Position numbers and translations under genes: made by a program. Under the pieces are notes generated by a model. It ran no database searches, was not told the DNA's origin, and worked only from the letters and a program-made list of their open reading frames with translations. Below, piece after piece: positions 8,309 to 51,542 of a DNA stretch of 64,000 nt. The stretch spans positions 80,169 to 144,168 of the forward strand of contig JBHJGN010000019.1 in the NCBI GenBank assembly GCA_050331735.1, written 5' to 3'. The stretch comes from Cyanophyceae cyanobacterium (lineage in GTDB: Bacteria; Cyanobacteriota; Cyanobacteriia; Cyanobacteriales; JBHJGN01). Numbering within the stretch: position 1 is the stretch's first letter; each line of letters starts with the position of its first letter.

Positions 8309-9142
8309 ATGAGAGCTGAACTAGCCAGAATTAAGGACTACTACCCAAACTACAAAGACGAAGTGTTTGGCGGAGAAGACATTATTGGATACAGTGTCTA
8401 CAGTGACAATAACGACAAAATCGGAGAAGTCCACGACATTATCGTAGATGATACTGGACGTTTGCGTTATTTCGTCATCGATACCGGATTTTGGGTCTTT
8501 GGGAAAAAAGTCCTGTTACCTATCGGCAGAGCTAAGACCGATTTCAATCAAAACCGCATCTATGCGACAGGAATGACGGAAGAACAGGCCAAGAATTTGC
8601 CAGAGTACAATGAGAACACCGCTCTTGATTACGATTACGAAGAGAGAGTGAGGGGGGCGTATAGAACGCCAGCAACTCAGCCTACTCGGACTAGCTACAG
8701 CCGTGAGAATTATAGCTACGATTACGATCCTAGTCTTTACGACCTGAACGAAGCTGACCACTCTACGCTCAGGCTGTACGAGGAAAGGTTGGTTGCCAAC
8801 AAGAATCGCTACAAAGCTGGTGAAGTTGCCGTTGGCAAAAGAGTTGAAACGGAAACGGCTCAAGTGGCTGTCCCGGTAGAAAAGGAAAGAGTTGTGATCG
8901 AACGCACTAACCCGACCGATACGACTCCAGTTGCTCCTGGTTCCACCGACTTCCGCGAAGGGGAAGTGGCTCGTGTGGAAGTGTATGAAGAAACGGCTGA
9001 AGTTAACAAGCAAGCTTTTGTTCGGGAAGAGGTTAGCGTCAGAAAAGAGGTAGACCGAGACACCGTTACGGCCAAAGAGCAAATTCGCCGCGAAGAACTA
9101 GAGGTAGATGTAGACGGTAAGCCCAACGTCAAAGACGTCTAG
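8309..9142 (+). CDS. PRC-barrel plus DUF2382 (YsnF/AvaK) stress protein
   Basis: ORF of 277 aa. It has an N-terminal PRC-barrel-like region (GYSVYSDNNDKIGEVHDIIVDDTGRLRYFVIDTG) and a C-terminal DUF2382 pattern (LRLYEERLVANKNRYKAGEVAVGKRVETETAQVAVPVEKERVVIER...VREEVSVRKE). Confidence 0.8.
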   Translation: MRAELARIKDYYPNYKDEVFGGEDIIGYSVYSDNNDKIGEVHDIIVDDTGRLRYFVIDTGFWVFGKKVLLPIGRAKTDFNQNRIYATGMTEEQAKNLPEYNENTALDYDYEERVRGAYRTPATQPTRTSYSRENYSYDYDPSLYDLNEADHSTLRLYEERLVANKNRYKAGEVAVGKRVETETAQVAVPVEKERVVIERTNPTDTTPVAPGSTDFREGEVARVEVYEETAEVNKQAFVREEVSVRKEVDRDTVTAKEQIRREELEVDVDGKPNVKDV

Positions 9143-9168
9143 AGCGGCTGATTTCTCCAGACGATCGA

Positions 9169-9195
9169 AAGCAGAGTCCGCCATAGACTCTGCTT
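9169..9195 (+). terminator. Terminator-like hairpin after the first DUF2382 gene
   Basis: Perfect 10-bp stem AAGCAGAGTC / GACTCTGCTT with a 7-nt loop. The trailing T run is weak. Confidence 0.5.
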
Positions 9196-9396
9196 CGAGG
9201 TACGAGGAAAGCATTCATAGAACTGGCTTGAGTGCGCTCAACGCAGCGCCTAGAAACGCTTCGAGGTGAAGCTTTATGTTCTGAGAATGTTCAAGTCCCT
9301 CAGCTAAGTGCGACTCTCCATCATTGGTCAGATGAACAGCTTGTCCGTCGTTTCTACTATTTTTACTAAACGTCATTTATTGGGAATATACAACTT

Positions 9397-10266
9397 ATGT
9401 CTCTAGTTAAAATTGCTGATTATTATCCAGACTACAAAAGCAGAGTATTTGATGGCGAAGATGTTATTGGGTACAGCGTTTACAACGAGAAAGAGGAAAA
9501 GCTCGGGGACGTCCATGAAATTCTTCTAGACGAACAGGGACGCTTCCGCTACTTTGTCATTGATACAGGCTTTTGGATCTTTGGGAAAAAGGTGCTGATG
9601 CCAGTGGGCCGAACTCGCATGGATTTTGCTCGTCGTCGGGTTTATGCAATGGGAATGACCCACGAGCAAGCAGAAGCTCTCCCAGAATATCGTGAAAATA
9701 CGGTTGTCGATTACGACTACGAAGAGCAGGTCAGAGAAACTTACCGTCCTAGCGTTGCTCAAACCGATCGCCCGACAGCATCTACTGGAGAAGGGGTCGG
9801 AACGAGCCGCCGTGAACCCACTCGTGACAACTACAGCTACGATGATGACCCAGACCTCTATGGCCTCAACGAGCAGAATCATGAAAAGCTAAAGCTATAC
9901 GAAGAGCGTTTAGTGGCGGATAAAGACCGCTATAAAGCTGGTGAAGTTTCCGTGGGCAAGAGAGTTGAAACAGAAACAGCAGAGGTTTCCGTTCCGGTCG
10001 AAAAAGAACGGGTCGTCATTGAGCGTAAATCCCCAACTGATGCTACACCAACAACGCCAGGAACGGCTGATTTTAGGGAAGGAGAAGTAGCTCGTATGGA
10101 GGTTTATGAAGAATCGGCTGATGTCGAAAAACAAGCCTTTGTTCGGGAGGAAGTTAAAGTTAGAAAAGAGGTAGACCGAGAAACTGTTGCAACCGAGGAA
10201 ACGGTCCGTCGAGAAGAGTTAGACGTTGATGTAGTAGAAGGAAAGCCGAACGTCAAAGACCTGTAA
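9397..10266 (+). CDS. PRC-barrel plus DUF2382 (YsnF/AvaK) stress protein, tandem paralog
   Basis: ORF of 289 aa, collinear with the 8309-9142 product. The N- and C-terminal domains are the same and the central linker has diverged. Confidence 0.8.
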   Translation: MSLVKIADYYPDYKSRVFDGEDVIGYSVYNEKEEKLGDVHEILLDEQGRFRYFVIDTGFWIFGKKVLMPVGRTRMDFARRRVYAMGMTHEQAEALPEYRENTVVDYDYEEQVRETYRPSVAQTDRPTASTGEGVGTSRREPTRDNYSYDDDPDLYGLNEQNHEKLKLYEERLVADKDRYKAGEVSVGKRVETETAEVSVPVEKERVVIERKSPTDATPTTPGTADFREGEVARMEVYEESADVEKQAFVREEVKVRKEVDRETVATEETVRREELDVDVVEGKPNVKDL

Positions 10267-10342
10267 ACTGAAAGTAAACCATTGCAGACAGGGCAGGTGG
10301 AGAATGCTTTCTACCTGCCTCTATTTAAAAAAAGGGTTAAAA

Positions 10343-10825
10343 ATGCCTGACAACGACAATATTACCAACGAACTGATCGCAGTCAATACAGACAGTACGC
10401 TGCCAGCCGAGCCTCAAGTTATCGAAACAGAAACCATTCGTCTTCTTGAGGAGCAGCTTGTCGTTGACCGACATAAGCAAAAAGTGGGCGAAATTATTGT
10501 TCGTAAAGTCGTAGAAACACGCCTGGTAGAAGTACCAGTTCGTAGTGAAAAGCTAATCGTGGAGCAGCTTGGTCCTGAAAATAGGCAGCTTGCTGAAATT
10601 AAACTTGGGGAAGGCACGATTTCTGGAGTGGAAGACTCTAGGACAGCGGCCCGCGACCGCGTCAGCGGTGATTTTTTTTCGCTAGAAGCAGCTAGTAATC
10701 TCCTACGAGCGATCGCCACCCAAAGAAGGCATGGATGCAAACGGGTGCGGATTGAGCTCGTGCTTGACGACGAACACCGTCAGCCAGAATACCAGGAAAT
10801 GTTCGATCGCTGCACGAAAAGGTAA
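10343..10825 (+). CDS. DUF2382 (YsnF/AvaK) domain protein
   Basis: The ORF is 10304-10825 and I prefer the ATG at 10343. It has one DUF2382-type unit (IRLLEEQLVVDRHKQKVGEIIVRKVVETRLVEVPVRSEKLIVEQ). Confidence 0.65.
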   Translation: MPDNDNITNELIAVNTDSTLPAEPQVIETETIRLLEEQLVVDRHKQKVGEIIVRKVVETRLVEVPVRSEKLIVEQLGPENRQLAEIKLGEGTISGVEDSRTAARDRVSGDFFSLEAASNLLRAIATQRRHGCKRVRIELVLDDEHRQPEYQEMFDRCTKR

Positions 10826-10875
10826 TAATATTATCTCTGGACAGTCAAGCGATAGATGCGGTGTCGGGAAAATAC

Positions 10876-11064
10876 TTCCTATCGGAACGGGGAAAGGGGA
10901 AAGGTTTCAGCTCTTTTGTGTTTGTGTAGCATCACCATTGAGAAATGGTATGAGGAAAAGCCGCTTTCGGGGTGGGAAAAGGAAAAAGCCCATGAATGAT
11001 ACAGCTTGTTCCTTAACACTGTGTTCTAGATCCTCCCGCACCGGGCAGTTTTCTCCTTCCCCGT
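10876..11064. repeat. Degenerate copy of the hairpin/GGGGAAAGG modular repeat family
   Basis: Contains ttcctatcggaac followed by ggggaaaggggaaagg (10889-10904). The core agcttgttccttaacactgtgttc is shared with the 40.3 kb and 41.8 kb copies. The C-rich end is ttttctccttccccgt. Confidence 0.6.
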
Positions 11065-12392: not shown

Positions 12393-12453
12393 CCCTTCTA
12401 GATTAACGAGAAGAGAGCAAAATCAGACGATCTTTAAGCCCTGTGCAAGCTGT

Positions 12454-12723
12454 TCAATTAAACCCTTTCCCCTTTCCCCTCTTCCCCTTCCCCACCGCCC
12501 CGCGACTATGATTTAATTCCATCGGTACGTCTGCTAACGCTTCATCCGGCAAAACGTAAGAAGAGGCAATCAGCTTCTCGTCCCAGTCCACAATCTCCGG
12601 GTAGCGAATCCCTGGTAATATTTGTACTGCAAAGATCTCCTGCACCGCTTCCTCAAACCTCAGAAAAGCCACTGTTTGACCCGTTTGCAAATTAACAACC
12701 CATACGCCACTTCTGGCAACCAA
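12454..12723 (-). pseudogene. C-terminal relic of a TIGR03032-like conserved hypothetical gene
   Basis: The 89-aa ORF (GVWVVNLQTGQTVAFLRFEEAVQEIFAVQILPGIRYPEIV) resembles only the C-terminal end of that roughly 330-aa family (from memory). No upstream coding continuation exists. The last codons (GKGKRGKGKGFN) are read from the C-rich repeat at 12464-12494. Confidence 0.5.
12464..12494. repeat. C-rich arm of the modular repeat family
   Basis: The sequence is ccctttcccctttcccctcttccccttcccc. Confidence 0.6.
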
Positions 12724-12739
12724 GACGGGGGGATTCTTG

Positions 12740-13623
12740 CTTCCGCTAGTGGATACGGAAGGCTAAATGCGACAATAAACCAGCAGCACCATCACAGGGA
12801 ACCAGGCACAGGAAGGAGGCGGCATTCTTAATGAATCTGCTTCGGTTACTGTTGAAAATAGCGAAATTTCAGACAACGAAGCCGAGCGAGGCGGCGGTAT
12901 CTTTAGCGAGGGCATCGTCGTGCGCGCGAGCATATTCTATGCTGCCGAAAAAGGTGAAATAACAGTAGAAAACAGCACGATTTCTGGAAATACAGCCAAT
13001 GACGTCGGTGGCGGGGTCTATAACGACGATGGCTTTTTAGAACTGAATAACAGCACAGTTTCTGGGAATACAGCAGATAATGGCGGCAGCGGCATTGTTA
13101 CCTTGAGTTCAACAATTACCATATCTTATGGTGGTGGCAGCTATTATTACGTCCTGTACCCCGGTGGAACGGAAATTCGCAATACAATTATTGCTGCCAA
13201 TGATAACAATACAGATGTTGAGGGCGATGTAGAAGGTCGCTTTAACCTCGTTTGTTGAGGGCGATGTAGAAGGTCGCTTTAACCTCGTTGGTAATGGAGA
13301 CGGAGTGGCAAGCTTTGTTGATGGAGAAAACGGTAATATTGTCGGCACGTCAGCTAAGACCCGCTCCTCGGTCCCCTACAGGATAACGGTGGTCCGACCC
13401 GAACTCAGGCTCTCCTGCTCGGCAGTCCAGCCTTCAATACCGGAGATCCTAACTTTACGCCGCCGCCCTTTACCGACCAGCGAGGCTTTGAGCGGGTACT
13501 TTTCGAGCGTGTTGATATGGGAGCGGTAGAAGCAGTGCCTGGACCGGAAGCAACTCTGGGATGGATACTAGGACTAGTCGCTCTCGGGGCTGCCCGTCAC
13601 TACAGGCGGCGAAGCTCGCATTA
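12740..13623 (+). pseudogene. Frameshifted relic of a parallel beta-helix repeat protein with a PEP-CTERM anchor
   Basis: Own translation across three frames. Beta-helix repeats are present (VENSEISDNEAERGGGIF, VENSTISGNTANDVGGGVY, LNNSTVSGNTADNGGSG). Next comes [14 protein letters not shown]...[19 protein letters not shown]. The end is [29 protein letters not shown], which is PEP-CTERM-like. There is no N-terminus, and the frame is broken at about 13256 and about 13365. Confidence 0.65.
13217..13290 (+). repeat. 37-bp tandem duplication inside the beta-helix pseudogene
   Basis: The sequence gttgagggcgatgtagaaggtcgctttaacctcgtt occurs twice head to tail (13217-13253 and 13254-13290). Only the last base differs. 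The unit length is not a multiple of 3 and creates the TGA stop ending at 13258. Confidence 0.85.
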
Positions 13624-13758
13624 AAAGAAATAGAGGTAACAGCGCTTGGACAATCAGCAGGCTTAGATGTGTTTGATTACATCTAGAGGGGGAGAATGCT
13701 GCTGGCGTTCTCCAAATACAGTAGTAAGGTGAAGCCCAAAACTTACAGAAAACACACC

Positions 13759-15270: not shown

Positions 15271-15575
15271 ATCAACTGAGGGGAAAGGAAGAAGCGGTGC
15301 GGCTCTGCGCCTCGAAGGGGTACTTTCAGAAAAGCTTCGCTAACGGCATCCTCCTGGACGCAATCACGGGGCTTCCAAAGTATCGCTAGTTGTGCGGAGG
15401 TTGCCTTCGCAAAGATTTGGCGGCGGAACAAGTCGGAACTCGGTTTCGGCAGTGCACTTTCCCGCCGTACGACGGCGGGAAACGGCGACCGCAGCACTAG
15501 GGCGGGCGGCTGCATTCCGAACACAATAGCTACGTCATACCAATTAGAAAAAGTCATGAGAGACTTGATCCGTTG

Positions 15576-15630
15576 GGAAAAAGGGGAAAGGGTCAGGGGG
15601 AAAGGTAAACACAGCAAGCCTTTCCCTTTT
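15576..15630. repeat. Compact copy of the modular repeat (G arm, short core, C arm)
   Basis: The sequence is gggaaaaaggggaaagggtcagggggaaagg taaacacagcaag cctttccctttt. Confidence 0.65.
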
Positions 15631-15770
15631 AAGAGCCAACTCTTTGTTAGTTAGGAGAACTATCTCACTACTTTCGGTCAATGGTATCAATTAGATTAGC
15701 GGGATGAGCTTTGCTCCGAGCAGCCGCCGTAACCGCTTTAGCCACTACCATCTGACCGCGTTTGCTACTG

Positions 15771-17936: not shown

Positions 17937-18470
17937 ATGAAATGTCCAGAATACCGCTCCCAGCATATCCGCAAAAACGGCAAGAACAAAGGCAAGCAAA
18001 ACTATATTTGTGTAGCTTGTAGACGTCAATTGATCACTGACTACAAAGCCCACAAAGGTTACTCAGACGAGTTTAAGCGAGAAGGTCTCAAGCTGTATGT
18101 CAACGGCATGGGTTTGCGAGCGATTGAGAGAGTCAAAGGAGTGCATCATACAACGGTAATTACTGGGGTAAAGCAAATTGGAGAACTCTTGCCGGATACC
18201 TACGATCTGGAGACGACGCCCCAAGTCGGAGAATTAAATGAGTTGGAAACGTTAGTCGGCATAAAAAAAACAAATTTGGCTGTGGACGGCAGTAGATCAC
18301 TTGGTTCGCGGAATTGTCGGTTGGTCTCTAGGCGACCGGAGAGCCGAAGCTTTTCGACCCTTAGGGAATTTGGGATGCCAATGGCAATGCTATTTCTATG
18401 TCACTAATGGCGCTCAAGTCTACCAACGTTTTATTGCTGATGGCGACCCGATTATGAGTAAAACCGACGA
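17937..18470 (+). mobile_element. IS1-family transposase relic (frameshifted and 3'-truncated)
   Basis: Zn-finger/HTH part: MKCPEYRSQHIRKNGKNKGKQNYICVACRRQ...NGMGLRAIERVKGVHHTTVI...ELNELETLVG. The frame breaks near 18290 and continues as VRGIVGWSLGDRRAEAFRPL...CQWQCYFYVTNGAQVYQRFI in the 18301 ORF. The catalytic C-terminal part is missing, and the first CxxC is mutated to CPEY. No terminal inverted repeats were identified. Confidence 0.7.
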
Positions 18471-18501
18471 CCCACCTCGAAAATACCTGAAGAAGGCATC
18501 T

Positions 18502-19107
18502 ATGAGCTATTTAAAGTTACACACATCTCTTTTCGTGACGGCGCTTGTTGTTCTCGCACCGACAGCAGCAGTCGCCCAGAGCGATATTCGTACAGAGCGG
18601 GTTCAGTTTGAGCCGGGCGCAAGCAGTGCCGTCATCGAGGACTCTATCACTGGCTACGAGATCGTAGACTATGTTCTCAACGCCAGAGAAGGACAGTATG
18701 CGAACGTTAGCATGGCAACCGACAATAGCGTTAATTACTTCAACATCCTGAGACCGGGTGAAAACGCAGTGGCCATGTTCAACAGCTCTACGGGCGTGAA
18801 TCAGTACGAGGGGATTCTTCCTGAGAGCGGCGACTACAAGATTCGGGTCTACATGATGCGGAGCGCCGCACGCCGGAACGAGGTAGCCAACTACCGCCTC
18901 GAAATGATTATTACAAATCCTGGGGGCAGTGTCTCCGATAGTGATGCCTCAGTTGAGGGAACTAACAATAATGCAATGGGCAACGTTTCCTGTACAATGT
19001 CTGAGGGACAGCCGACTGGTTCTGACCCCTTCGGTGTCACTCGTGAGGAAAACGGGACGGGCATCTTTACAGACATTAGGTTCGATCGTCTCGCTCGGCG
19101 GTGGTAG
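18502..19107 (+). CDS. Hypothetical secreted protein
   Basis: In-frame ATG at 18502 inside ORF 18301-19107. The signal peptide is MSYLKLHTSLFVTALVVLAPTAAVAQ. The rest is a soluble domain with a Cys near the C-terminus. It appears intact within a decayed island. Confidence 0.7.
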   Translation: MSYLKLHTSLFVTALVVLAPTAAVAQSDIRTERVQFEPGASSAVIEDSITGYEIVDYVLNAREGQYANVSMATDNSVNYFNILRPGENAVAMFNSSTGVNQYEGILPESGDYKIRVYMMRSAARRNEVANYRLEMIITNPGGSVSDSDASVEGTNNNAMGNVSCTMSEGQPTGSDPFGVTREENGTGIFTDIRFDRLARRW

Positions 19108-25179: not shown

Positions 25180-25477
25180 GCGCCTGCGGCGCGGGAGAAG
25201 GGAAAATAGTTCCTCCGGAACGGGGAAAGGGAAAAGGGGAAGGGGGAAAGGAAATCATTGATCAGTTTCGTCCTTTATTGATCTTCTTGTCCTCGTTACC
25301 AAAAAAAGACGGGCATTTTGCCCGCTTCGATTGCTGATTCTAGCCAAAGAAGTCCCCCCTTTCCCCTTTTCCCGTCTCGAAGAGACAAATTCCCCTTTCC
25401 CCTTTTCCCGTCTCGAAGAGACAAATTCCCCTTTCCCCGTCCCGGAGGGACAAGTCATTCCCCCGTCGCTGAGCGAC
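25180..25477. repeat. Largest copy of the modular hairpin/GGGGAAAGG repeat family (G-rich left arm, C-rich right arm, two perfect 36-nt tandem units)
   Basis: Left arm: GCGCC-tgc-GGCGC (25180-25192), GTTCC-tcc-GGAAC (25209-25221), then the G tract at 25222-25251. Right arm: cccctttccccttttccc GTCTC-gaa-GAGAC aaatt occurs twice, identically (25356-25391 and 25392-25427). It is followed by GTCCC-gga-GGGAC (25439-25451) and GTCGC-tga-GCGAC (25465-25477). Confidence 0.85.
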
Positions 25478-25536
25478 TTTTATCGGTAGAATTGCTATGA
25501 TTTTGATCTTATTAGTTAATCCCTTATTTGCTGCCA

Positions 25537-26274
25537 ATGACCAATTTGCTAGAAGTTAACGATGTTTATGCAGGGTATATTCAGGATTTAAATATTCTGC
25601 AAGGGATTAATTTTAGAATCTCTTCTGGAGAGCTAGTCACGGTCATTGGTCCGAATGGGGCTGGTAAATCGACCCTTGCTAAGGCTATTTTTGGTTTACT
25701 CAAGCCAAACCAGGGCAAGATTACGTTTAAAGGGAAAGATATTACCGGATTAAAGTCCGACCAGATTGTGCGTCGGGGCATGTGCTACGTTCCCCAAATT
25801 TCTAACGTCTTTCCCACCTTATCGGTAGAAGAAAACCTAGAAATGGGGGCTTTCATCAGTAGCGATCCTCTCAAGCCCCTCAAAGGCTCAATTTTCGAGA
25901 TGTTTCCTGCTCTAGCCGACCGCCGTCGCCAACGGGCCGGCACTCTTTCTGGAGGAGAACGACAAATGTTAGCGATGGGGCGAGCGTTAATGCTCGATCC
26001 AGACCTGCTGATTTTGGACGAACCCTCGGCAGCTTTATCGCCTATGCTCGTTAACACAGTCTTTGAGCGGATTCAAACCATTAATCAAACCGGCAAAGCC
26101 ATTATCCTCGTTGAGCAAAATGCTAAAAAGGCGCTGATGATGGCGCATCGAGGCTACGTATTAGAAAATGGACGCGATCGCTTTGAAGGCCCTGGTCAAG
26201 AGTTGTTAAACGACCCCAAGGTAGGAGAGCTATATCTGGGGGCTGCCTTTGAATCCGCGACTCAGGAAGACTAA
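25537..26274 (+). CDS. ABC transporter ATP-binding protein, LivF/NatE-like (branched-chain amino acid type), orphan
   Basis: The ORF is 25528-26274 and I prefer the ATG at 25537. It has Walker A GPNGAGKST, signature LSGGERQ, Walker B LLILDEPS and a LivF-like tail DPKVGELYLG. No permease or binding-protein gene is adjacent. Confidence 0.85.
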   Translation: MTNLLEVNDVYAGYIQDLNILQGINFRISSGELVTVIGPNGAGKSTLAKAIFGLLKPNQGKITFKGKDITGLKSDQIVRRGMCYVPQISNVFPTLSVEENLEMGAFISSDPLKPLKGSIFEMFPALADRRRQRAGTLSGGERQMLAMGRALMLDPDLLILDEPSAALSPMLVNTVFERIQTINQTGKAIILVEQNAKKALMMAHRGYVLENGRDRFEGPGQELLNDPKVGELYLGAAFESATQED

Positions 26275-26292
26275 CCGAGAGGCAAAGGGTAA

Positions 26293-26337
26293 GTCGCTCC
26301 GCGACGGGGAAAGGGAAAGGGGAAAAGGAGAAAGGGG
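26293..26337. repeat. Single module of the repeat family
   Basis: GTCGC-tcc-GCGAC (26293-26305) is followed directly by ggggaaagggaaaggggaaaaggagaaagggga. Confidence 0.7.
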
Positions 26338-26615
26338 ATTTAATTGCTTCGTGTTTACGCTCAGGCTATGCACATTACTCAAACAAACAGAGGCTAATAT
26401 TAAAACCACATCCCTAGCTAGCTTGTGAATTTTAAATAGGTATTAATATTAAATCTGTCTAAATAGCCATAATTAGGACATCAGGTTCAACTAAAAGTTA
26501 GTAATTAGTCGCGATTCAGTCAAGACATCCCACTAACCACTAACTCAACGTTCCCTCTCAAATAACAACTCATCAAGCGGTAATATAATTCCTCAACTCT
26601 TTATCTGTCAGGACA

Positions 26616-26978
26616 ATGAAAATTACTCAATGTCTTCATACAGCGCTTCTTGTTTCTGATTTAGACAAAGCCGAGCAGTTTTATAGCCAGACTTTGGGGC
26701 TCCCTAAAGTAGATCGCTCCCTCAATTATCCCGGCGCTTGGTATCAGATTGGGGAGCATCAGCTTCATCTGATGGTTCATCCCAATTTCAAAACAGAGCC
26801 ACACAATCAAGAAAAGAGGGGGCGTAATCCTCACGTGGCCTTTGCCGTCGATAATTTAGATGAAGCCAAACAGCGTCTCCTCTCTGGAGGATACGGTCTT
26901 CAGATGAGTTCCTCCGGTCGCGCGGCTTTGTTTACTCAAGACCCGGACGGCAATATTATCGAAATTAGCCAGATATAA
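26616..26978 (+). CDS. VOC (glyoxalase/bleomycin-resistance/dioxygenase) family protein
   Basis: ORF of 120 aa with LHTALLVSDLDKAEQFYSQTLGL...HVAFAV...DPDGNIIEI. Confidence 0.8.
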   Translation: MKITQCLHTALLVSDLDKAEQFYSQTLGLPKVDRSLNYPGAWYQIGEHQLHLMVHPNFKTEPHNQEKRGRNPHVAFAVDNLDEAKQRLLSGGYGLQMSSSGRAALFTQDPDGNIIEISQI

Positions 26979-27161
26979 GTGGCTGGGTAGAATTGATTCT
27001 AGATGGAATAGTGGCCAAGAGCTATTAGCTTTCCCCGCTTGTCTCCGTTTTCAAACGACTCCTTAAAACCTCGGAATTCGCACTCTAGGAAAAGGTTAAA
27101 CAGCAGGGAACTATCCTCAAAATTTCTCCTTTTCCCCACGCCTACAGCATTCCCCGTTTCT

Positions 27162-28469
27162 ATGATTTATGCTTATTTGTACAGCGAGCCACTGTTAGAC
27201 TCTCTGCCTGATTTGGCAGATTGGATGTCAGCAGCGAACAAGGTGTATCATGATTTGGGTGAGCGAGAACAGTGGGGGCAGCTTTTAGCAGATTGTCAAA
27301 TCGATCCTCCAGCTCGCTTGCTGCTCCGCAGTCTAGACGAACTCGGAGATACTCCAGCAGAGGTCAGCGATCGCCTCGCCCAGATTGAAGCGCTTGGCAT
27401 CGACGTGCTGGCTACTGAGCAACCCTACCGTTCTGCTCAACTCAATGCCGCTAGCCCCACCGAGATGAGAGCGCAGTTGGCTAGCTTGCTTCAGGAAGTC
27501 CAGCAGCATCAACAGCGTCGTCTGCTGCGCCAAGGTCACGCCCGCAACCGCCTCAACTTTCTGCCGCCGCCGGGGAAAGCGCCCTACGGCTATCGTCGCG
27601 GCAAAGACCGCTACGTTATTGACCGCAGTACCGCTCCGGTGGTCAAAGATTTTTTTGAGCATTTTCTGCTCTACGGCTCTTTACGAGGAGCGGTTCGCTA
27701 TCTAGAGAAACGCTACGGCAAGAAAATTGCGGTTTCGACAGGTCGCCGCTGGTTAACCAACCCAGTTTATCGAGGGAATTTGGTGTACCGCAACGGAGAC
27801 GTGATTGCCGATACCCACGCTCCCATTCTCCCTAAAGACGAAGCAGCGCAAGTGGATCGCCTGCTGCGACGCAACAGCCGTCTCCCGACGCGAACCGCCA
27901 GCGCTCCTCGTTCGCTGGCCGGATTGGTGGTTTGCCAGAAGTGTCAGACGAGGATGAAGATTACTCGCGTCACAGCTAGAGGTAAACCGAAAGAGTATCT
28001 GTATCTGCGCCCGATTCACTGCCCGCGACAGCGCCGGTGTCAGGCGATTCCCTACTCAGAAGTGCTGCAACAGACTATTAAGAAGATTTGCCAAGAGCTA
28101 CCGCGCTCCGTTGCCCGGTTAGATATCGGCAAAGTAGGGAAAGCCAAGGAGCAAATCCTGGCTCAGATCGAGCAAAAACGAGCCGCAAGCGAGCAGCTAT
28201 CAGAATTAATTGCGCAGGGGATTCTCGACCCTGAAACCGCCACCCTCCGCCGCTATAAGCTCCGGACAGAAATGGCTCAGCTTCAGTCCCAGAGTGCCCA
28301 ACTGCCTCCGGAGAATTTAAGAGCGATCGCGCAAACTGTTTCTTTTCCTCAATTCTGGCTCGACCTCTCCGAGGCGGAACGACGATTCTACTTTCGGGAG
28401 TTCATTCGGCAAATCGCTATCGTCCGTACTGATACAGACTGGCATTTAGCACTGGTGTTCATTTTCTGA
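27162..28469 (+). CDS. Large serine-recombinase-like protein with degenerate catalytic N-terminal domain
   Basis: The ORF is 27039-28469 and I prefer the ATG at 27162 (MIYAYLYSEPLL). The recombinase-domain pattern is PPPGKAPYGYRRGKDRYVIDRSTAPVVKDFFEHFL...WLTNPVYRGNLVY. The zinc-ribbon-like region is LVVCQKCQTRMKI...HCPRQRRC. A C-terminal coiled coil follows. The canonical Y-x-R-V-S-x-x-x-Q and D-R-L-x-R motifs are not recognisable. Confidence 0.7.
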   Translation: MIYAYLYSEPLLDSLPDLADWMSAANKVYHDLGEREQWGQLLADCQIDPPARLLLRSLDELGDTPAEVSDRLAQIEALGIDVLATEQPYRSAQLNAASPTEMRAQLASLLQEVQQHQQRRLLRQGHARNRLNFLPPPGKAPYGYRRGKDRYVIDRSTAPVVKDFFEHFLLYGSLRGAVRYLEKRYGKKIAVSTGRRWLTNPVYRGNLVYRNGDVIADTHAPILPKDEAAQVDRLLRRNSRLPTRTASAPRSLAGLVVCQKCQTRMKITRVTARGKPKEYLYLRPIHCPRQRRCQAIPYSEVLQQTIKKICQELPRSVARLDIGKVGKAKEQILAQIEQKRAASEQLSELIAQGILDPETATLRRYKLRTEMAQLQSQSAQLPPENLRAIAQTVSFPQFWLDLSEAERRFYFREFIRQIAIVRTDTDWHLALVFIF

Positions 28470-30047
28470 TCAAACAACGTCAGAACTCGCGGCAGAAACG
28501 GGAGCGATCGCTGATTCCAGCAGCGACTCACTTCCCGTCCACGACTCTGCCTGCAAGCTCGACCGCCCACTATTTTCTATAAAGCTCAGCCGTCCTCGCT
28601 CATCCCCGTCGAGGGTAAAATCCCCCCCCACAATGGCATCTTCGTCGCCATCTCCATCTACATCAGCAAAGCTGGGAGCCGCATAGAAGCCCACATCAAC
28701 GGACCGAAACGGATTGCCGCTAATCACTTCGGTAAATGTACCGCCGTTGTTGCGATAGTAGCGAGTGCGTCCAAACACTTCCCCAATCAGCGCATCTTCA
28801 TCGCCGTCTCCGTCTACATCGCCAAAAGCAGGGACGCTGAAGTAACCAACATCCACGCCGTTGAGGGGATTGAAAGTGCCGCGTCTAGGCACAAACCGCC
28901 CGTTTTCGTTACGGTAGTAGGCGACCGTCCCGTCCGCCAGCCCTAAGAACGCATCGATGTCGCCGTCTCCATCAACGTTGGCAAAGGTAATATTGCTGTA
29001 GCTGCCGGTATCGACGCTGCTAAAAGGGTTGTTGCCTCCGGATTTTTCTACAAACCCATCCTCGTCATTGTTGCGATAGAAACCGATGGTGCCGTCGAAC
29101 TCACCGACGAACAAATCAGCATCTCCATCGCCCTCAAAATCTACCAGATGGGGAGTACTCACGAAGCCAACATCAATTTCTTCAAAGGGGTTGCGATCAT
29201 CGGTAATGCTCACAAAACTGTTATTCTCGTTGCGGTAATAAAACAGTTCGCCATTGATTTCGCCGACAACCGCATCCAAATCCCCATCATCATCGAGGTC
29301 AGCAAAGGCCGGAACGGGACTAGAACTAATTTGCAATCCAGCTAAGGGAATGCTGGCTTCAAGACTAGATGACCGCGCCCGGGTCGTGTTCAGAATTTGG
29401 GCATTCAGCGGCGAGGGGAACTGCCTCGTTCCAGGAGGCAGGGCAGCATTCATTAAGTCATTGGGAACTGAGGCCGCGTCAATATGACTTAAGTCATTGG
29501 TGAGGGGGGCGGTAAAGTCATTCCCAACAAATACCGGATCGCTGTCAGCGTTGCGAACGTATTGATCGAACTCAGCATAGCCGCCGATAAATCCTGCCAG
29601 ATGTCCAATTTCGTGTAGAACAGTCGTGAGCAGATCGTATCTGCCATAGGCTTCTGAATTGACAGTGGCTAGAGCAGATTGAGAAGTAAGACGGCCAAAT
29701 TCGGAGCGCTCTTCAGGAGTCGGATCAACAAACCAGCCAGTGCCGTTAGCGTTATCATCAACAATGATAGTACCGCCGTTAAGTTCGCCTTCCCCGTCAA
29801 TCGTCACCAGCGCTTCAGCGAGCGTTCCCACAGGAAGATCTTCAATCTCGTAGTCAATATCTAGGGAAATTTGCGGATTGAGAAGCTCGTTCCAGATATC
29901 TAAGGCCGCATCTCCGATGCGCTCAATGGCTGACTCGGTTAAATTATGGCTGTTATTGCTCATCAGTGACTGATAGATAGCTGTCGCTTCTGCGGACAAC
30001 GCAGACAAAAAACGATGCTGTCTGCTTCTAGGACGGCTATCCTTCAT
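28470..30047 (-). CDS. FG-GAP/VCBS repeat protein with N-terminal HExxH zincin-like domain
   Basis: ORF of 525 aa. The metalloprotease-like motif is TTVLHEIGHLAGF. Repeated FG-GAP-type units follow (F.DxDGDGDxDA...YYRN), at least five of them. No N-terminal signal peptide is visible. Confidence 0.8.
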   Translation of the reverse strand: MKDSRPRSRQHRFLSALSAEATAIYQSLMSNNSHNLTESAIERIGDAALDIWNELLNPQISLDIDYEIEDLPVGTLAEALVTIDGEGELNGGTIIVDDNANGTGWFVDPTPEERSEFGRLTSQSALATVNSEAYGRYDLLTTVLHEIGHLAGFIGGYAEFDQYVRNADSDPVFVGNDFTAPLTNDLSHIDAASVPNDLMNAALPPGTRQFPSPLNAQILNTTRARSSSLEASIPLAGLQISSSPVPAFADLDDDGDLDAVVGEINGELFYYRNENNSFVSITDDRNPFEEIDVGFVSTPHLVDFEGDGDADLFVGEFDGTIGFYRNNDEDGFVEKSGGNNPFSSVDTGSYSNITFANVDGDGDIDAFLGLADGTVAYYRNENGRFVPRRGTFNPLNGVDVGYFSVPAFGDVDGDGDEDALIGEVFGRTRYYRNNGGTFTEVISGNPFRSVDVGFYAAPSFADVDGDGDEDAIVGGDFTLDGDERGRLSFIENSGRSSLQAESWTGSESLLESAIAPVSAASSDVV

Positions 30048-30095
30048 AAAGTGTTTAGAGTGATACTACGTTTTGACCGTAGTGATGTATCAATA

Positions 30096-30581
30096 CTAAC
30101 CGTTTTCCTTAAAACCGAAGTCGAGAATCAGAGTTGGGGCCAAACAGCGCTCAGCAAAAGGAGATTGGGACGACATAGAGAATAACCGTTCCAGAAAAAA
30201 ATCTCTCGTTGCTGGCTTTAGCCATCCCTTCATCACGGCTAAAACCCCAAAGCGAATTGGCTGGTCCTGTTGTTCTTGCACAATGGTGTTGACTTGATCC
30301 TCAGTGAGTAAAGCTGCCTGCTGCCAGTAGAAGCCAATGGGATACCGGGTAGAAGTATTCAAGAATAAAGCCCATTGCTCAACAAAAAAGTCCGCCGTTT
30401 TCTGTTTTAGCCAACCCCGCAGGGACAAGATTTCTCCGAGGTTGAGGTCGCGGTACTGAAGCTGGTCTCGCAGCGCGACATCGATTTGTGCTGCCGACAC
30501 TAAACCAGCCTGCTGCAACACCTCACCGAGGGGCTCGACTGTAGCGGACATTTTAGTGTGAATCATCGGTGGATACGGCAT
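30096..30581 (-). CDS. Hypothetical protein with internal duplication
   Basis: ORF of 161 aa. It has two similar halves ending RGWLKQKTADFFVEQW and KGWLKPATRDFFLERL. I did not recognise a family. Confidence 0.55.
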   Translation of the reverse strand: MPYPPMIHTKMSATVEPLGEVLQQAGLVSAAQIDVALRDQLQYRDLNLGEILSLRGWLKQKTADFFVEQWALFLNTSTRYPIGFYWQQAALLTEDQVNTIVQEQQDQPIRFGVLAVMKGWLKPATRDFFLERLFSMSSQSPFAERCLAPTLILDFGFKENG

Positions 30582-31075
30582 GAATTTTAGTGGGGAAGGA
30601 AACCGAAGGACTGCTAGACTTAAAGTATGAAGAAAAAACTAGAAAGCTTAAGCCAACACTAGCGAGCACTACTGCTAGCTGGTGAAAATGTCTATCCATA
30701 GTTAAGAGCTACCGTTTTGACCTCCAGTGTAGTGAGAAATGGGGGAGTTTAGGTGAAGCGTTGATAAAGATATCGATAATTTCTGTAAATTCTGGGAAAA
30801 ACTTTAAAAGCGATGGAAAGGAAAAGGGGAGTTGAGAGTTTTGAGCCTATTCAAAGAAGTCGCTGAAGTCAGCTTTCGGCTGTTCCTATCAACTCTATCT
30901 GCCAGCTCTCAAGACTTGTTTAGCGGTTAGCTTCAACCTTGAGAAGGTCGGAGAAATGATAGGCTGATTGCCTCGAAACTGCTGAATTTTATACTCTCCG
31001 TTCATCAGAATACAGATAGAAAGGGTGGGGGATATTGGCTTCCCAATGTAGCGAGTAACATCGAGCCCTGCGTAG

Positions 31076-31375
31076 TCTCCAATTCAATTAGAGACTGCCT
31101 ATTCAAAAAAAACATTTACTACAACAATTGCAGGAATCATTGAAATAGAGAGAACTAAAAATGAGCGCATCATAAATCAAACGGTTGCGGTCGCCAGTAT
31201 AGTAATTGGGTCTGCCGCTGTAGCTGCTAACGTTATTTCCAATTTCGCTGAATCATCAACTTTCACTAATCCTTGGCTGAGTTTTGCGATCGCTTTCTCA
31301 ACGAGTATTTTCATTGGAGTTATTTTTACTATTTTGATTTATTGGTTGAGCAGGGCAATATTTTTCAAGAAATAA
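31076..31375 (+). pseudogene. Possible start-less C-terminal relic of a membrane protein
   Basis: Own translation is open from the TAG at 31073-31075 to the TAA at 31373-31375. It gives ...IAGIIEIERTKNERIINQTVAVASIVIGSAAVAANVI...WLSFAIAFSTSIFIGVIFTILIYWLSRAIFFKK, with two TM helices. There is no ATG/GTG/TTG near the 5' end. Confidence 0.3.
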
Positions 31376-31504
31376 GGGAACAGATACTGAGCTTACGGGC
31401 AATTTATCTACTGGAATAGTTACTCTGTTAATAAAACGGCGCATAATTGTTGATGAATATCTGTCGGTCTATCGCTCAACTTACTCTTCAAAATAGAAGA
31501 GCAA

Positions 31505-32095
31505 GTGGCTCTATCACCAACCATGAACCAGTCTCTGCCACCAAGTTTCTTTGCACAACTCTATCAAGACAACCCCGATCCTTGGGGATTTGAAACCAGC
31601 GAGTATGAAGCGCAAAAATATGCAGCAACCTTAGCCGCTCTTCCGAAGCCTCGCTACGCCAGAGCTTTTGAAATTGGCGGCTCGATTGGAGTGCTGACTC
31701 AAAAACTAGCTGAACGCTGTGACTCTTTGCTGTCCGTTGATGTTTGCAAACAGGCGCAGCAACGAGCCGTCGAGCGCTGCCGAGAGCTAGCGCACGTCCG
31801 TTTCCAAATTATGCAGGTTCCCCTCGCCTATCCCGAGGAAACCTTTGACCTCACGCTACTGTCGGAGGTAGGCTACTACCTAAGCTGGAGCGACCTTCAG
31901 AAAACTCAGCAGCTAATGATCGAGCATTTAGAGTCGGGCGGTCATCTCCTGCTCGTTCACTGGACTCCAAAAGCCGCTAGCTATCCCCTCACTGGCGATG
32001 AAGTACACGACTCGTTTGAGTCGTTATCGGCACTAAGGCATCTAGATGGGCGGCGCGACAAGCAGTATCGGCTTGATTTGTTCGAGCGACTCTAG
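31505..32095 (+). CDS. SAM-dependent methyltransferase (NodS-like)
   Basis: ORF of 196 aa (GTG at 31505, alternative ATG at 31523). It has YQDNPDPWGFETSEYEAQKY and motif I EIGGSIGVLT. Confidence 0.8.
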   Translation: MALSPTMNQSLPPSFFAQLYQDNPDPWGFETSEYEAQKYAATLAALPKPRYARAFEIGGSIGVLTQKLAERCDSLLSVDVCKQAQQRAVERCRELAHVRFQIMQVPLAYPEETFDLTLLSEVGYYLSWSDLQKTQQLMIEHLESGGHLLLVHWTPKAASYPLTGDEVHDSFESLSALRHLDGRRDKQYRLDLFERL

Positions 32096-33286
32096 GGAAT
32101 CGTCAGCCCTTGCTGCCTTAATCAGACGCAGCTCGGCGATCGCCTCCTGAATGGGAACTAGCGGCCAGTGTTGCAGGTAGTAGTCTCGCTCCGGCTGCTG
32201 CTGGGCAATGTGCTCAACGAGCCAACCAAAAGTGGGAGACTGGGCGATCGCCTCCCGCAGCCAGTCTGTCGTAAGGCTTAACGCCTGAGCTAGAGGAGGG
32301 TGAACACTAGTGGTGTCGCGCCGCTGCCAGAGCAGGCGTAGCTGGCGACGCACCCAGTAGCGAGTTTCGACTAACGCCGCAGACTCCACCAGCATCGGCT
32401 GGTGCGCGTGACCCAAGCGGGCTAGCTGCGTCAATCGTCCAGCGAGTCCGTCTTGAATCCGCCCCACGACCCGAGCGCTGGTAATCACCTGTACATCGGG
32501 GCTATGGCGAAAACGAGCGTCTGCTCGGGTCAAAGCCTGATAGAAAGCGACATCTTCGGGAGTGCGGACTGACGGTAAGCCGCCAACCTGAGCGTATGTG
32601 GCAGCGGTCACGGCTAAGTTAGCGCCAAAGTGTTGATGGTGGCGGGGTATCGGATCGTAGGGAACGGGGTCGAGAATGGCCTCTAGCTGCGCTACCAGCG
32701 AGCGATAGCCAACGTAGCGCAGAAAGTAAAGTCGGGTCACGCGGTCGAGAGCCGCTCGTTCTCTGGGGTTGGTGAGAATGCGTCCTCCGACGGCATCAGC
32801 ACCGCGCTGAATCTCTTGGAGAATGGTAGCAATCCAGGTGGGCGTTACTTGAGTATCGCCATCGGTAGAGGCAATGATCCCCGGTGAATGCTTCTGGGCA
32901 CGTCCTAATTGGGCCAAGCGGCGATAGGCTTCGTCCATGAGCCGCTTCCGCACCCAGCCGATGTAGGCATATTCTGCCTCAAGCATAACCTCCACAACGT
33001 GCAGGACTAAAGCAGAGCGACGGGCAAAGCGGCGCGCAATGGCTGCCGAATTGTCCGAGCAGTTGTTCGCTAAAACAATCACTTCGTAGCGATCGCGCTC
33101 CACGGAGTTGCCGTCTAAATCTACCTGTTCGGCCAGAGCGGTGAGAGTGGCTTCGAGGGTTTTGGCTTCATCCCGCACTGGCACAATCACACAAACCTCG
33201 CAATTCAGCGCCGGCGGCTGCTCGACCAGCGGGGGTTCCTTGCCGTTCAGCCGAGCCGCTGCTTCAGAACGAGCAATCTGTAGCAT
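32042..33286 (-). CDS. Family 2 glycosyltransferase
   Basis: ORF of 414 aa with VCVIVPVRDEAKTLEATL, YEVIVLANNCSDNS and STDGDT. Its 3' end overlaps the methyltransferase 3' end by 54 nt. Confidence 0.85.
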   Translation of the reverse strand: MLQIARSEAAARLNGKEPPLVEQPPALNCEVCVIVPVRDEAKTLEATLTALAEQVDLDGNSVERDRYEVIVLANNCSDNSAAIARRFARRSALVLHVVEVMLEAEYAYIGWVRKRLMDEAYRRLAQLGRAQKHSPGIIASTDGDTQVTPTWIATILQEIQRGADAVGGRILTNPRERAALDRVTRLYFLRYVGYRSLVAQLEAILDPVPYDPIPRHHQHFGANLAVTAATYAQVGGLPSVRTPEDVAFYQALTRADARFRHSPDVQVITSARVVGRIQDGLAGRLTQLARLGHAHQPMLVESAALVETRYWVRRQLRLLWQRRDTTSVHPPLAQALSLTTDWLREAIAQSPTFGWLVEHIAQQQPERDYYLQHWPLVPIQEAIAELRLIKAARADDSLESLEQIKPILLVAPPI

Positions 33287-36906: not shown

Positions 36907-37106
36907 TGTCTTCTCCTTATGGACAGATTGGCTTTCCCTTGGCTAGACAAAAAAATCAGGATTTGGTATTTACCAAGTAGGAAAGCAAGGACTTAAAATT
37001 GTACACCTAAAAACAGCGATCGGTGACCAGTGACCAGTCAAGGTAGCTCAGCAACCGGACACTGACACTCGGTTACTCATCACAGACTAAGTACTGTTTA
37101 GAAACA

Positions 37107-37131
37107 CTGATAACTAGTAACTGGTAACTGA
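37107..37131. repeat. STRR-like heptamer tract
   Basis: The sequence is ctgataactagtaactggtaactga. A related tgaccagtgaccag lies at 37024-37037. Confidence 0.6.
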
Positions 37132-40206: not shown

Positions 40207-40220
40207 CGAAAGCAAGAAAA

Positions 40221-40346
40221 GCGCCCTAGGCGCGAGGGAAGGGGGCAAGTTGCTCCGCAACGGGAAAAGGGCAAGGGGGAAGGGGGAAAGGGGGAATAAA
40301 TTAGCTTGTTCCTTCATTAAGTGTTCTTTCCCCGTCCCGGAGGGAC
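40221..40346. repeat. Modular repeat copy (upstream of the GT4 gene)
   Basis: GCGCC-cta-GGCGC (40221-40233), GTTGC-tcc-GCAAC (40249-40261), G tract 40262-40294, core aataaattagcttgttccttcattaagtgttc, then tttcccc GTCCC-gga-GGGAC (40334-40346). Confidence 0.85.
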
Positions 40347-40625
40347 ATTTCTCTCTGCTTCAGCTCGAAAAATTTTGAGTTCAACTGCCTCATTTTTCGC
40401 AACATGGGTTACTCTCTTAATCAGTTACCAGTGATTAGTGACTAGTCACCAATTATCGATGCTGAGTGTGAGAGGATAATGCTTAGTCAGTTACCGCTTC
40501 CCTGGGTCCAGGGTTACTATCTAATTGGCTCACTGATCAAGCAGCGCACCAACGATGGACCGCTCTATCACCGATTGTCAGGATCACTGCTCACTGTAAA
40601 ACGCCGTTATTGACTTTCCTTTCAG

Positions 40626-41675: not shown

Positions 41676-41834
41676 GTCCCTATGGGACGGGGAAATCGCT
41701 TCGCGATGGGGAAAGGGGAAGGGGAACACTGTTCCTCCAGAACGGGGAAAGACTACTTAATTAAAGAACAAGCTGATTTATTCCCCCTTTCCCCCTTCCC
41801 CTTTGCCCTTTTCCCGCGCTGTGGCGCTTCCCCC
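41676..41834. repeat. Modular repeat copy (downstream of the GT4 gene), core inverted relative to 40262-40346
   Basis: GTCCC-tat-GGGAC (41676-41688), ATCGC-ttc-GCGAT (41695-41707) and a G tract. Next come GTTCC-tcc-aGAAC (41731-41743), the core, then the C tract and GCGC-tgtg-GCGC (41816-41827). The reverse complement of 41731-41815 aligns with 40262-40346 over 85 nt with about 9 mismatches (aligned by eye). Confidence 0.85.
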
Positions 41835-44101: not shown

Positions 44102-44118
44102 CCGTTAGCCATTAGCTA

Positions 44119-51539: not shown

Positions 51540-51542
51540 GGA

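Follow-up and report, generated by a model that had tools for sequence, protein, structure and literature searches.

The DNA analysed here, a 64-kb stretch of one metagenome-assembled genome (MAG) referred to as the window, carries a family of short non-coding repeats whose copy at 25180-25477, the focal locus, lies between a ferredoxin gene (fdx) and a gene for an ABC ATPase. Further copies follow glyA, mraY and an arginase-family gene, and the genes flanking the repeats have ordinary housekeeping functions according to the annotation of the window open reading frames (ORFs). The window is 49.7% G+C and contains HIP1 (GCGATCGC) 54 times where 1.3 occurrences are expected, so the DNA is cyanobacterial, from a HIP1-rich uncultured source. 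The encoded MraY-like and ABC-ATPase proteins show full identity to MGF1479375.1 and MGF1479359.1 of an NCBI MAG. Its closest relatives by MraY are long-read metagenome assemblies from ENA (87-89% identity), followed at ~80% by Stanieria, Xenococcaceae and Pleurocapsales. The repeats form a dispersed, modular, non-coding family that is real, and its strongest regularity, a polarity rule missing from the first-pass annotation of this DNA, is that the G-rich arm lies just past a stop codon with the G-rich strand as the sense strand.

Each module is a 13-14-nt hairpin, built of five stem base pairs and a loop of 3-4 nt, that abuts G runs of the GGGGAAA type with no spacer in between. The outer (type-A) hairpin, GCGCC-NNN-GGCGC, is the first unit of the two-armed elements that start at 25180, 40221 and 51543. 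The inner (type-B) hairpin, GTNNC-TYC-GNNAC, has an A/T-rich 5' flank and a constant closing C:G pair (16 of 17 copies in alignment A2, 16 of 19 in alignment A6). Hairpins are preceded by AATA, GTAA, GCAA, GGAA, AAAA, ATTT and similar flanks and followed by GGG(G)A. The G tracts are period-7 arrays of GGGGAAA, GGGAAAA and GGAAAGG units, which Tandem Repeats Finder reports at 10884, 12463, 15580, 25217, 26306, 40269 and 41708 with 3-5 copies and 68-92% matches; the tracts at 25222, 26306, 40262, 41689-41726, 51571 and 12493 (minus strand) hold at least four G runs.

Alignment reveals an architecture of ~100-130 nt common to five loci: one or more hairpins, a G tract of ~35 nt, a non-repetitive core, TTTCCCC, and a terminal hairpin that is sometimes followed by additional C-tract plus hairpin units of 29 or 36 nt. 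In complete elements the core (the AGCTTGTTCC core) spans ~32 nt and reads AAT(A/G)AT(T/C/A)AGCTTGTTCCTT(A/C)A...GTGTTC. The layout of G-rich arm, core and C-rich arm that had been proposed for complete elements is borne out at these five loci, and is like that of bacterial interspersed mosaic elements (BIMEs) and of doublets of repetitive extragenic palindromic (REP) sequences (REPINs). The arms of the focal locus form an imperfect inverted repeat of 26 nt with 88% complementarity; they are low in complexity, unequal in length and modular. Coordinates of all copies are given in Table 1.

Table 1. Members of the repeat family in the window and their parts. The last column gives the distance of the element from the preceding stop codon.
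Positions	Strand	Feature	Context or basis	Past stop (nt)
25180-25192	+	Outer (type-A) hairpin GCGCC TGC GGCGC	Ferredoxin stop (25174)	5
25193-25254	+	Left G-rich arm: short G tract, type-B hairpin GTTCC TCC GGAAC (25209-25221), 33-nt G tract with four G runs of at least 3	Predicted G-quadruplex when the arm is folded alone	
25255-25299	+	Diverged family core (ATCAGTTTCGTCCTTTATTGATC...)	Aligns with the AGCTTGTTCC core of other elements; nhmmer 25209-25297, E 1.4e-10	
25300-25325	-	Intrinsic-terminator-like hairpin (GCGGGCAAAATGCCCGT + T7), 7-bp GC-rich stem	Sequence scan; between two plus-strand genes	
25353-25477	-	Right arm, C-rich on the plus strand; minus strand has four hairpin plus G-tract units (starts 25477, 25451, 25422, 25386); contains the 36-nt tandem	Repeats, covariance model R1	
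26293-26338	+	Single-arm module, GTCGC TCC GCGAC plus 33-nt G tract	ABC-ATPase stop (26274)	18
40221-40347	+	Complete element: type-A hairpin, G tract, GTTGC TCC GCAAC, G tract, core AATAAATTAGCTTGTTCCTTCATTAAGTGTTC, TTTCCCC, GTCCC GGA GGGAC	glyA stop (40206)	14
41676-41831	+	Composite: hairpin plus G modules at 41676, 41695 and 41732, then an inverted copy (41730-41831) of the 40245-40347 element	mraY stop (41672)	3
51543-51695	+	Complete element: type-A hairpin, G tract, TGTGTTC core remnant, three 29-nt C-tract plus hairpin units	Arginase-family gene (stop 51539) to hypA	3
10858-11063	both	Composite: on plus, imperfect hairpin with GGGGAAAGGGGAAAGG (10875-10904), weak module 10956-10989, core GATACAGCTTGTTCCTTAACACTGTGTTC; on minus, G tract 11049-11062	Convergent genes; minus tract past the stop of the minus-strand gene ending at 11064	1
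12442-12510	-	Single-arm: wobble hairpin GTCGC GGG GCGGT, 31-nt G tract, core-like TTTAATTGAACAGCTTGCAC	Overlaps the 3' end of a truncated TIGR03032 ORF	
15278-15312	+	G tract (GAGGGGAAAGGAAGAAG), no hairpin	DAO/Rieske gene stop (15270)	7
15571-15633	+	G tract and short C tract (local 12-bp stem), TGTTC/core-like part, no 13-nt hairpin	Profile, folding	
54456-54500	+	Weak degenerate copy (GGGTAAAGGGAAATTGTTCTTTTCCC): G tract and TGTTC/core-like part, no hairpin	Symporter gene stop (54407)	48
43269-43303		Further weak piece		

Enrichment of the family motifs in the window is strong. GGGGAAAGG occurs 17 times against 0.64 expected, and perfect hairpins of 5 bp that have loops of 3-4 nt and a purine tract behind them number 13 against 0.8 in Markov simulations, 12 of them within the loci listed in the first-pass annotation. 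GTNNCNNNGNNACGGGGAAAGG has 8 matches at no more than one mismatch (0.01 expected), and its four free stem positions are complementary in all eight, which represent five different stems. In a control, the loop-fixed pattern GTNNCTCCGNNACGGGGAAAGG had 33 matches in 185,579 reference genomes and JGI metagenomes (16 genome contigs and 17 metagenome contigs), all of them singletons in a non-cyanobacterial, HIP1-poor context; the stems are complementary in 3 of the 33, near the 1 in 16 expected by chance. One of these matches, L030 (GTCCCTCCGGGACGGGGAAAGGGGGG), was examined and is probably fortuitous. A scan of viral contigs with GTNNCTCCGNNACGGGGAAAGG gave no match, and exact-pattern scans did not find the exact subfamily in the reference genomes or the JGI metagenome contigs. 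The core pattern AGCTTGTTC is marginally enriched on its own (4 against 1.0 expected, three of the four in elements). For the outer hairpin GCGCCNNNGGCGC searched by itself there is no enrichment (3 found and 2.6 expected at no more than one mismatch), and it is the context of this hairpin that is striking.

A covariance model, R1, built from 17 copies and run with filters off at E ≤ 0.1, finds 19 modules in the window, and all 19 fall inside the loci listed previously. The list stands with some corrections, in that 15576-15630 and 54465-54500 have no hairpin, and 12464-12494 is part of the minus-strand module at 12442-12510 that overlaps an ORF. All seven stem variants named earlier are present and complementarity is maintained across copies, with 98.8% and 96.8% of stem cells paired in two alignments. 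Both-sided changes occur in 18 and 22 cells, compensatory changes are seen at four of the five stem pairs, none of 500 shuffles reaches the observed pairing or covariation, and slid registers pair at 27-57%; the copies are paralogues, and these counts are not of independent events. The covariation implies that the hairpin matters or forms at some stage; selection on RNA structure is not separable by covariation alone from hairpin-templated repair of DNA.

A coding role for the repeats is unlikely. The focal locus is crossed only by short ORFs of 60-72 aa, and one truncated ORF elsewhere reads through a module as low-complexity GKGKRGKGKG. Searches against Rfam detected only the guanidine-I and glutamine riboswitches in the window and nothing at the repeat loci, either at the gathering threshold or at E ≤ 5, and blastn of the 40215-40350 element against the PLSDB plasmids gave no match.

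The copies flanking mraY (40261-40347 and 41730-41816) are inverted with respect to one another and 90% identical over 87 nt, and have unrelated hairpins at the same position, GTTGC TCC GCAAC (40249) versus GCGCC ACA GCGC (41827). Unrelated hairpins in near-identical copies mean that modules are swapped like cassettes. The core was also considered as a promoter, an idea rejected because these two copies point in opposite directions. The 36-nt tandem reported earlier at the focal locus is present at 25356-25438 (2.3 copies, 100% identity); its units are contiguous, as are the 29-nt units, and the lack of spacers led us to reject a CRISPR array. Logan contig L039 (run SRR6462986), an independent and shorter short-read assembly of the source organism, is 100% identical to window 25409-32352, with its positions 1-128 matching 25409-25536, and it breaks within the 36-nt tandem. 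Because this assembly stops inside the tandem, the copy number there may be an assembly estimate, and counts in the MAG may be too low.

The polarity rule emerged from a survey of the context of all window tracts that consist only of purines, are 12 nt or longer and contain 7 or more G. Eighteen such tracts are non-coding, and 12-13 of these follow a stop codon at a distance of 1-66 nt and have their G-rich strand as the sense strand. Five of the 18 are the second (C-rich) arm of a two-armed element, and in no window element of the survey does the C-rich arm come first. Wherever the case is clear, in about 15 of 15 instances including relatives, the first arm begins 1-50 nt past the stop codon and is G-rich on the sense strand, and each of the convergent genes at 10.8-11.1 kb has its own G-rich arm behind it. 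Among relatives the rule is obeyed by five of six tracts (L036 11111+, 19705+ and 15540-; L018 17301-; L043 240+), the sixth (L041 12908+) being ambiguous. As it is kept on both strands within one 21-kb stretch, orientation tracks transcription and not replication. Stop-proximal sense polarity points to a transcription- or RNA-linked role over plain DNA parasitism.

The module hairpins do not, as a rule, have the form of intrinsic terminators, since on the sense strand they run into G/A runs and not into a U tract. Terminator-like exceptions are confined to three hairpins: 25465-25477, with TTTTAT behind it; 40334-40346, with ATTTCTCTCT behind it and lying past glyA on the sense strand; and the minus-strand hairpin in the middle of the focal locus. 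The last of these had been noticed as a minus-strand hairpin with a T run and is indeed present, with T7, at 25325->25300. Its 7-bp GC-rich stem and T7 face the minus strand between two plus-strand genes, and four hairpin plus G units in matching orientation (25477->25353) lie upstream and run into it, so that some arrays could be free-standing small-RNA genes. We consider this highly improbable: a scan of the focal locus gave no convincing minus-strand promoter, Rfam has no match, the other loci are without such a terminator, and the hairpin at 25300-25325 could be a bidirectional terminator for ferredoxin.

A simple scan finds classical hairpin-plus-U terminators behind only ~4 of 48 window gene ends, plus one inside a repeat element, and cyanobacteria are not known to have Rho. 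The repeats could be read as a signal at the level of DNA, in which the G-rich non-template strand would form a G-quadruplex (G4) or R-loop behind RNA polymerase just past the stop codon. The hairpin would serve as a duplex-quadruplex junction, and transcription would pause or end without a U tract. Most arms have at least four G runs of at least 3, and relative to the upstream gene the G-rich strand is in all cases the non-template one. Comparable placement is known for the G4-forming heptamer repeats GGGGA(C/T)T of Nostoc and GGGAATC of Xanthomonas described by Rehm et al. 2015, which are found on the coding strand no more than 50 bp from stop codons and differ strongly among relatives (PMC4692102). 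The same authors found no regulatory role for their repeats (PMC4692102), and the C-rich arm of our elements would compete with G4 formation. Together with the position of several elements between probably co-transcribed genes (gdmH-hypA and mraY-cinA), this makes a DNA-level signal, itself a variation on the 3'-trailer proposal given below, very unlikely.

Close relatives, whose assemblies are ENA ERZ25070591, ERZ25070562, ERZ25070564 and ERZ25070565, were sampled at ten loci totalling ~190 kb. R1 finds only one orthologous site in them, just past the stop codon of a nucleoside-hydrolase gene in L018, L037 and L038. L018 has GCCCC TTC GGGGC, four GGGTAAA-type units and then TTTTCAGCTT; L038 has GTCTC TTC GGGGC and two units, its stem pairing only through G.U wobbles on the G-rich strand; and the stem of L037 has a 1-nt deletion. 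One module has been retained vertically at the same 3' end in these three while the heptamer number went from 4 to 2. L043 has one weak outer-type copy behind a stop codon, and the ~100-nt element profile matches L018 17301-17223 (E 2e-7) and L036 15540-15476 (E 1e-4). By manual count the G tract of the L036 match equals window 25222-25252 at 30 of 31 positions, the two sites being non-orthologous.

At orthologous spacers the window stands apart. The fdx-ABC spacer, with its element, measures 353 nt from the ORF coordinates, or 362 nt if the annotated start is used, against ~80-100 nt in the four relatives seen, each of which has a different stem-loop of unrelated sequence behind ferredoxin (AGGTTGC-heptamer inverted arms or a plain terminator); given a stem-loop in all four, the site after ferredoxin calls for a 3' structure. 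The ABC-glyoxalase spacer is 341 nt in the window, 30 nt in L040, 20 nt in L043 and 160 nt in L041 and L042. Between mraY and cinA the window has hairpin plus G modules and an inverted element, relatives have other G-rich repeats directly past the stop and then CTAATAG heptamers, and L017 has only 5 nt. Between glyA and mraY the full element of the window is represented in relatives by a miniature G-rich ... TCTTCCCGTTCTGG version that aligns to its ends. The elements are dispensable, because they are absent or miniature at these orthologous sites. The window has 4.2 purine tracts per 10 kb, compared with 0.5-1.9 in close relatives and 0 in Stanieria PCC 7437, where the 21 kb surrounding these genes contain no copy and the spacers are very short. 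From these densities and the differing copies of the relatives, the family is clade-wide and fast-evolving, and has been amplified in the source lineage partly in place and partly at new sites.

Such rapid change might have no function behind it. G heptamers resembling the short tandemly repeated repetitive (STRR) sequences could expand by slippage, and palindromes could be made or kept perfect by intrastrand template switching, leaving a by-product of mutation with neither function nor mobility. This would account for the period-7 arrays, the 29- and 36-nt tandem units, the 4 versus 2 heptamers of orthologues, the dispensability of the elements, and the presence in the clade of other spacer heptamer families such as CTAATAG, AGGTTGC, ACTGGTA and GCAGGGG. 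A ~32-nt non-repetitive core and a specific ~31-nt G tract common to non-orthologous sites within and between genomes are harder to explain in this way, slippage does not predict strict stop-proximal sense polarity, and the closing C:G pair and T-Y-C loop are invariant across many stem variants. We regard the neutral explanation as decidedly unlikely.

A selfish element mobilised in trans as single-stranded DNA (ssDNA) deserves more consideration, although it too is unlikely. A Y1/HUH enzyme of the REP-associated tyrosine transposase (RAYT) or IS200/IS605 type, with a single gene at some other place in the genome, would recognise the hairpins, the mobile doublet of a REPIN would consist of the inverted G and C arms, and the 3' location would reflect target choice or tolerated sites. 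Inverted doublets and covarying stems are present, the excess of tracts over close relatives and Stanieria and the related copies at non-orthologous sites suit such an element, and so does the absence of the exact subfamily from the genomes and metagenomes scanned. Direct repeats that might represent a target-site duplication were not seen at the borders 25180/25477, 40221/40347 or 51543/51695, as with IS200/IS605. The loop reads as a GNA triloop closed by C:G on the C strand, and such triloops give exceptionally stable DNA mini-hairpins. No Y1 transposase was detected among the ~50 window ORFs, a weak objection as RAYTs are usually single-copy, and no copy has a RAYT or DDE transposase linked to it. 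Strict sense polarity on both DNA strands is not known for REPINs, the miniature version between glyA and mraY in relatives looks like growth in place and not insertion, and hairpin swaps in near-identical copies fit recombination better than copy-and-paste. Tagged REPs are defined by a GTAG or CGTC tag and an imperfect palindrome of 20-40 bp (PMC3733652), and the family has neither the tag nor the length, its palindrome being 13-14 nt with a 5-bp stem.

The earlier comparison with miniature inverted-repeat transposable elements (MITEs) and REPs holds for the BIME-like layout and in part for the inverted arms; within the window a target duplication, a parent insertion sequence (IS), the tag and a palindrome of REP length are all missing. 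MITEs, for example the cyanobacterial Nezha, share with the family a length of 100-300 nt, inverted arms, dispersal, lack of coding capacity and lineage-specific abundance. The arms seen here are low-complexity mosaics and not IS-derived terminal repeats, and no parent IS lies in the window.

The remark that no transposase is nearby is correct in that none lies next to any copy, and needs the addition that the window holds an IS1-family transposase remnant at 17937-19107. It comprises two ORFs flanked by two DUF29 genes and has no sequence relation to the repeats; descent of the family from it was rejected, as there are no common ends and no model matches in that region. A gene for an XisF-like large serine recombinase (27039-28469) lies downstream of the ABC-glyoxalase pair and is not linked to the repeats, because the same position is kept in L040, L041 and L043. 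In L036, 11662-13961 contains a TnpB/OrfB_IS605 fragment and group-II-intron reverse-transcriptase fragments that replace cinA downstream of mraY and a G tract, and family-like hairpins were not seen in that segment.

As RNA, isolated hairpins fold at -3.2 to -7.9 kcal/mol. Two-armed elements fold as a long duplex of G arm and C arm, with z scores against shuffles of -5.0 (mraY-cinA), -6.6 (fdx-ABC) and -1.8 (glyA-mraY). When ViennaRNA quadruplex energies are included, isolated arms are predicted to form a hairpin and a G4, and two-armed elements mostly keep the duplex. Nearest-neighbour energies do not distinguish the strands for perfect hairpins. Imperfect stems mostly keep G.U on the G-rich (sense) strand, as in four cells of the window alignment, 51636 (minus), two cells of L038 (GUCUC/GGGGC), and L043; window 12506 (minus) and 10956 are among the examples. 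Only 1-2 A.C cells would wobble on the other strand. This asymmetry weakly favours RNA of the sense strand.

Taking these observations together, we propose, with a probability of about 0.5, that the family is a lineage-amplified mosaic of 3'-trailer RNA structures that acts like REP/BIME sequences and has spread by recombination and slippage. The stop-proximal position and the coincidence of G strand and sense strand suggest that each element would be transcribed as the tail of the upstream gene. The nascent RNA may form one or more small hairpins, possibly with a G-quadruplex where there are at least four G runs, and a C-rich arm, if present, would zip with the G arm into a long imperfect duplex. 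By analogy with REP/BIME in E. coli, a 3' end structured in this way could stop 3'-to-5' exonucleases, cause pausing or attenuation of RNA polymerase, and let adjacent cistrons be expressed separately. The terminating ribosome would melt any hairpin that begins 3-5 nt beyond the stop codon, and folding could thereby couple to translation; a similar effect occurs in E. coli for REPs within 15 nt of stop codons. Copies probably spread and are reshaped through ectopic recombination or gene conversion in the low-complexity G/C tracts together with slippage, which best explains the spread because neither target duplications nor a linked transposase were seen. Its expected signatures are at hand: swapped hairpin cassettes, 29- and 36-nt tandems, changes in heptamer number, and the 30/31 G tract at non-orthologous sites.

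Several observations weigh against this proposal. The elements are missing or reduced at orthologous sites of relatives, and the orthologous hairpin behind the nucleoside-hydrolase gene is decaying in L037 and L038. With 5 bp the small hairpins are marginal, and the thermodynamic optimum of two-armed elements partly swaps them for long-range pairing. The wobble asymmetry rests on few cells, and on the C-rich strand the T-Y-C loop consensus becomes G-R-A with a closing C:G pair, which would fit an ssDNA role. A strong terminator is also hard to square with the position of the 51543-51695 element within a probable operon.

Comparison with known repeats places the family near several of them. Like REP/BIME and REPIN sequences, it consists of short extragenic palindromes at gene 3' ends or between cistrons, occurring singly, as inverted pairs or as mosaics with linkers, with stems that covary; in enterobacteria REP/BIME sequences are thought to stabilise upstream mRNA and attenuate transcription. 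Five loci have the G arm, core and C arm with units in both orientations that are typical of BIME mosaics, a likeness of architecture only. The hairpin differs from those of REP/BIME in being fused to G-rich heptamer runs with strict sense polarity, and no RAYT is seen within the window. With the G4 heptamers of Nostoc and Xanthomonas the family shares period-7 G-rich tandems with about four G runs, intergenic stop-proximal placement on the coding strand, occasional inverted pairs, and strong variation in length and sequence among close relatives. The unit is different, GGGGAAA/GGGAAAA in place of GGGGA(C/T)T, GGGAATC or STRR1-3, and, unlike the G4 heptamers and STRRs, the tracts are short (2-5 units), occur in a unicellular-type lineage near Xenococcaceae and Pleurocapsales, and belong to a defined ~100-nt element that also has a non-repetitive core and, at its 5' edge, a hairpin.

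The classical STRR repeats of heterocystous cyanobacteria, reportedly described by Mazel et al. 1990, are akin to the G tracts. The small dispersed repeats (SDRs) of Nostoc punctiforme are said, in work by Elhai et al. 2008, to be 21-27 nt long, hairpin-capable, almost exclusively intergenic and nested in heptamer and other repeats, and no transposase is known for them. No sequence relationship between SDRs and the family was found, and the hairpin of the family is fixed in position and polarity to the G tract and stop codon; the hairpin swap at 40249 versus 41827 is reminiscent of SDR insertion into otherwise identical sequence. BOX elements of Streptococcus pneumoniae are cassette-built, with a variable number of one tandem module, are intergenic and form stable RNA structures. 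They resemble the family in this modular build and differ in being of unrelated sequence, from another phylum and without G-quadruplex-type tracts.

The suggestion of an undescribed class was too strong, as both G tracts and architecture are familiar. The view that the repeats differ from described ones survives in part: the literature searched for the motif or family held no description of the hairpin-plus-GGGGAAA module and Rfam has no match, while the G-tract half fits the published G4 heptamers (PMC4692102). The family resembles BIME/REPIN or BOX in its architecture and G4 heptamers in its G tracts, and the hairpin-plus-GGGGAAA module is a new variant and not a new class.

It is conceivable, if at long odds, that hairpin and G runs together make a duplex-quadruplex hybrid, in RNA or in displaced non-template DNA, which would serve as a U-tract-independent signal that forms or protects 3' ends in a Rho-less bacterium, with folding controlled by the terminating ribosome and cassettes exchanged by a dedicated process. 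If true, this would be a new type of bacterial gene-end signal and not one more selfish repeat. The clean rule of a first arm at most 50 nt past the stop codon with the G strand as sense ties a dispersed repeat to transcription or translation termination and not to random insertion, and the family links REP-like hairpins with G-quadruplex-type heptamer repeats, usually treated apart. Strong amplification in one uncultured lineage and sparse occurrence in close relatives offer a natural comparison for repeat effects on cyanobacterial mRNA 3' ends. In practical terms the repeats break short-read assemblies, as at the focal locus.

STRR-like heptamer repeats are a general trait of this lineage. 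Other intergenic heptamer families of the clade, some of them in inverted pairs, include CTAATAG/TTAGCCA, ACTGGTA with its inverse, and AGGTTGC in inverted arms; they lie at window 52860-52883, 44098-44122, 37106-37130 and 40419-40446, and in relatives at ~11087-11144 of L018, L037 and L038 and after fdx in L040, L041 and L043. A second short motif, GAAGCGGTGCG(R)C...GCGCC, stands behind a G tract after a stop codon at window 15291-15312 and at L041 10775-10800.

The guanidine-I riboswitch (50168-50279) is upstream of an arginase/agmatinase-family gene, hypA and a hypB/CobW-like gene, and the region 50168-52829 looks like the known Ni-dependent guanidine-hydrolase operon; the element at 51543-51695 separates genes 1 and 2 of this putative operon. 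The glutamine (glnA-type) riboswitch (54953-55024) is upstream of a DUF4278 gene within the minus-strand region 54558-55024, a known layout for glutamine-synthetase inactivating factors. A region of broken ORFs at 12400-13700 includes the TIGR03032 protein, reduced to its last ~51 residues (12454-12723, minus strand), and a perfect 37-nt tandem duplication is found at 13216-13289. Three tandem paralogues with DUF2382 occupy 8309-10825, of which the first two also have a PRC-barrel and are 73% identical over 300 nt.

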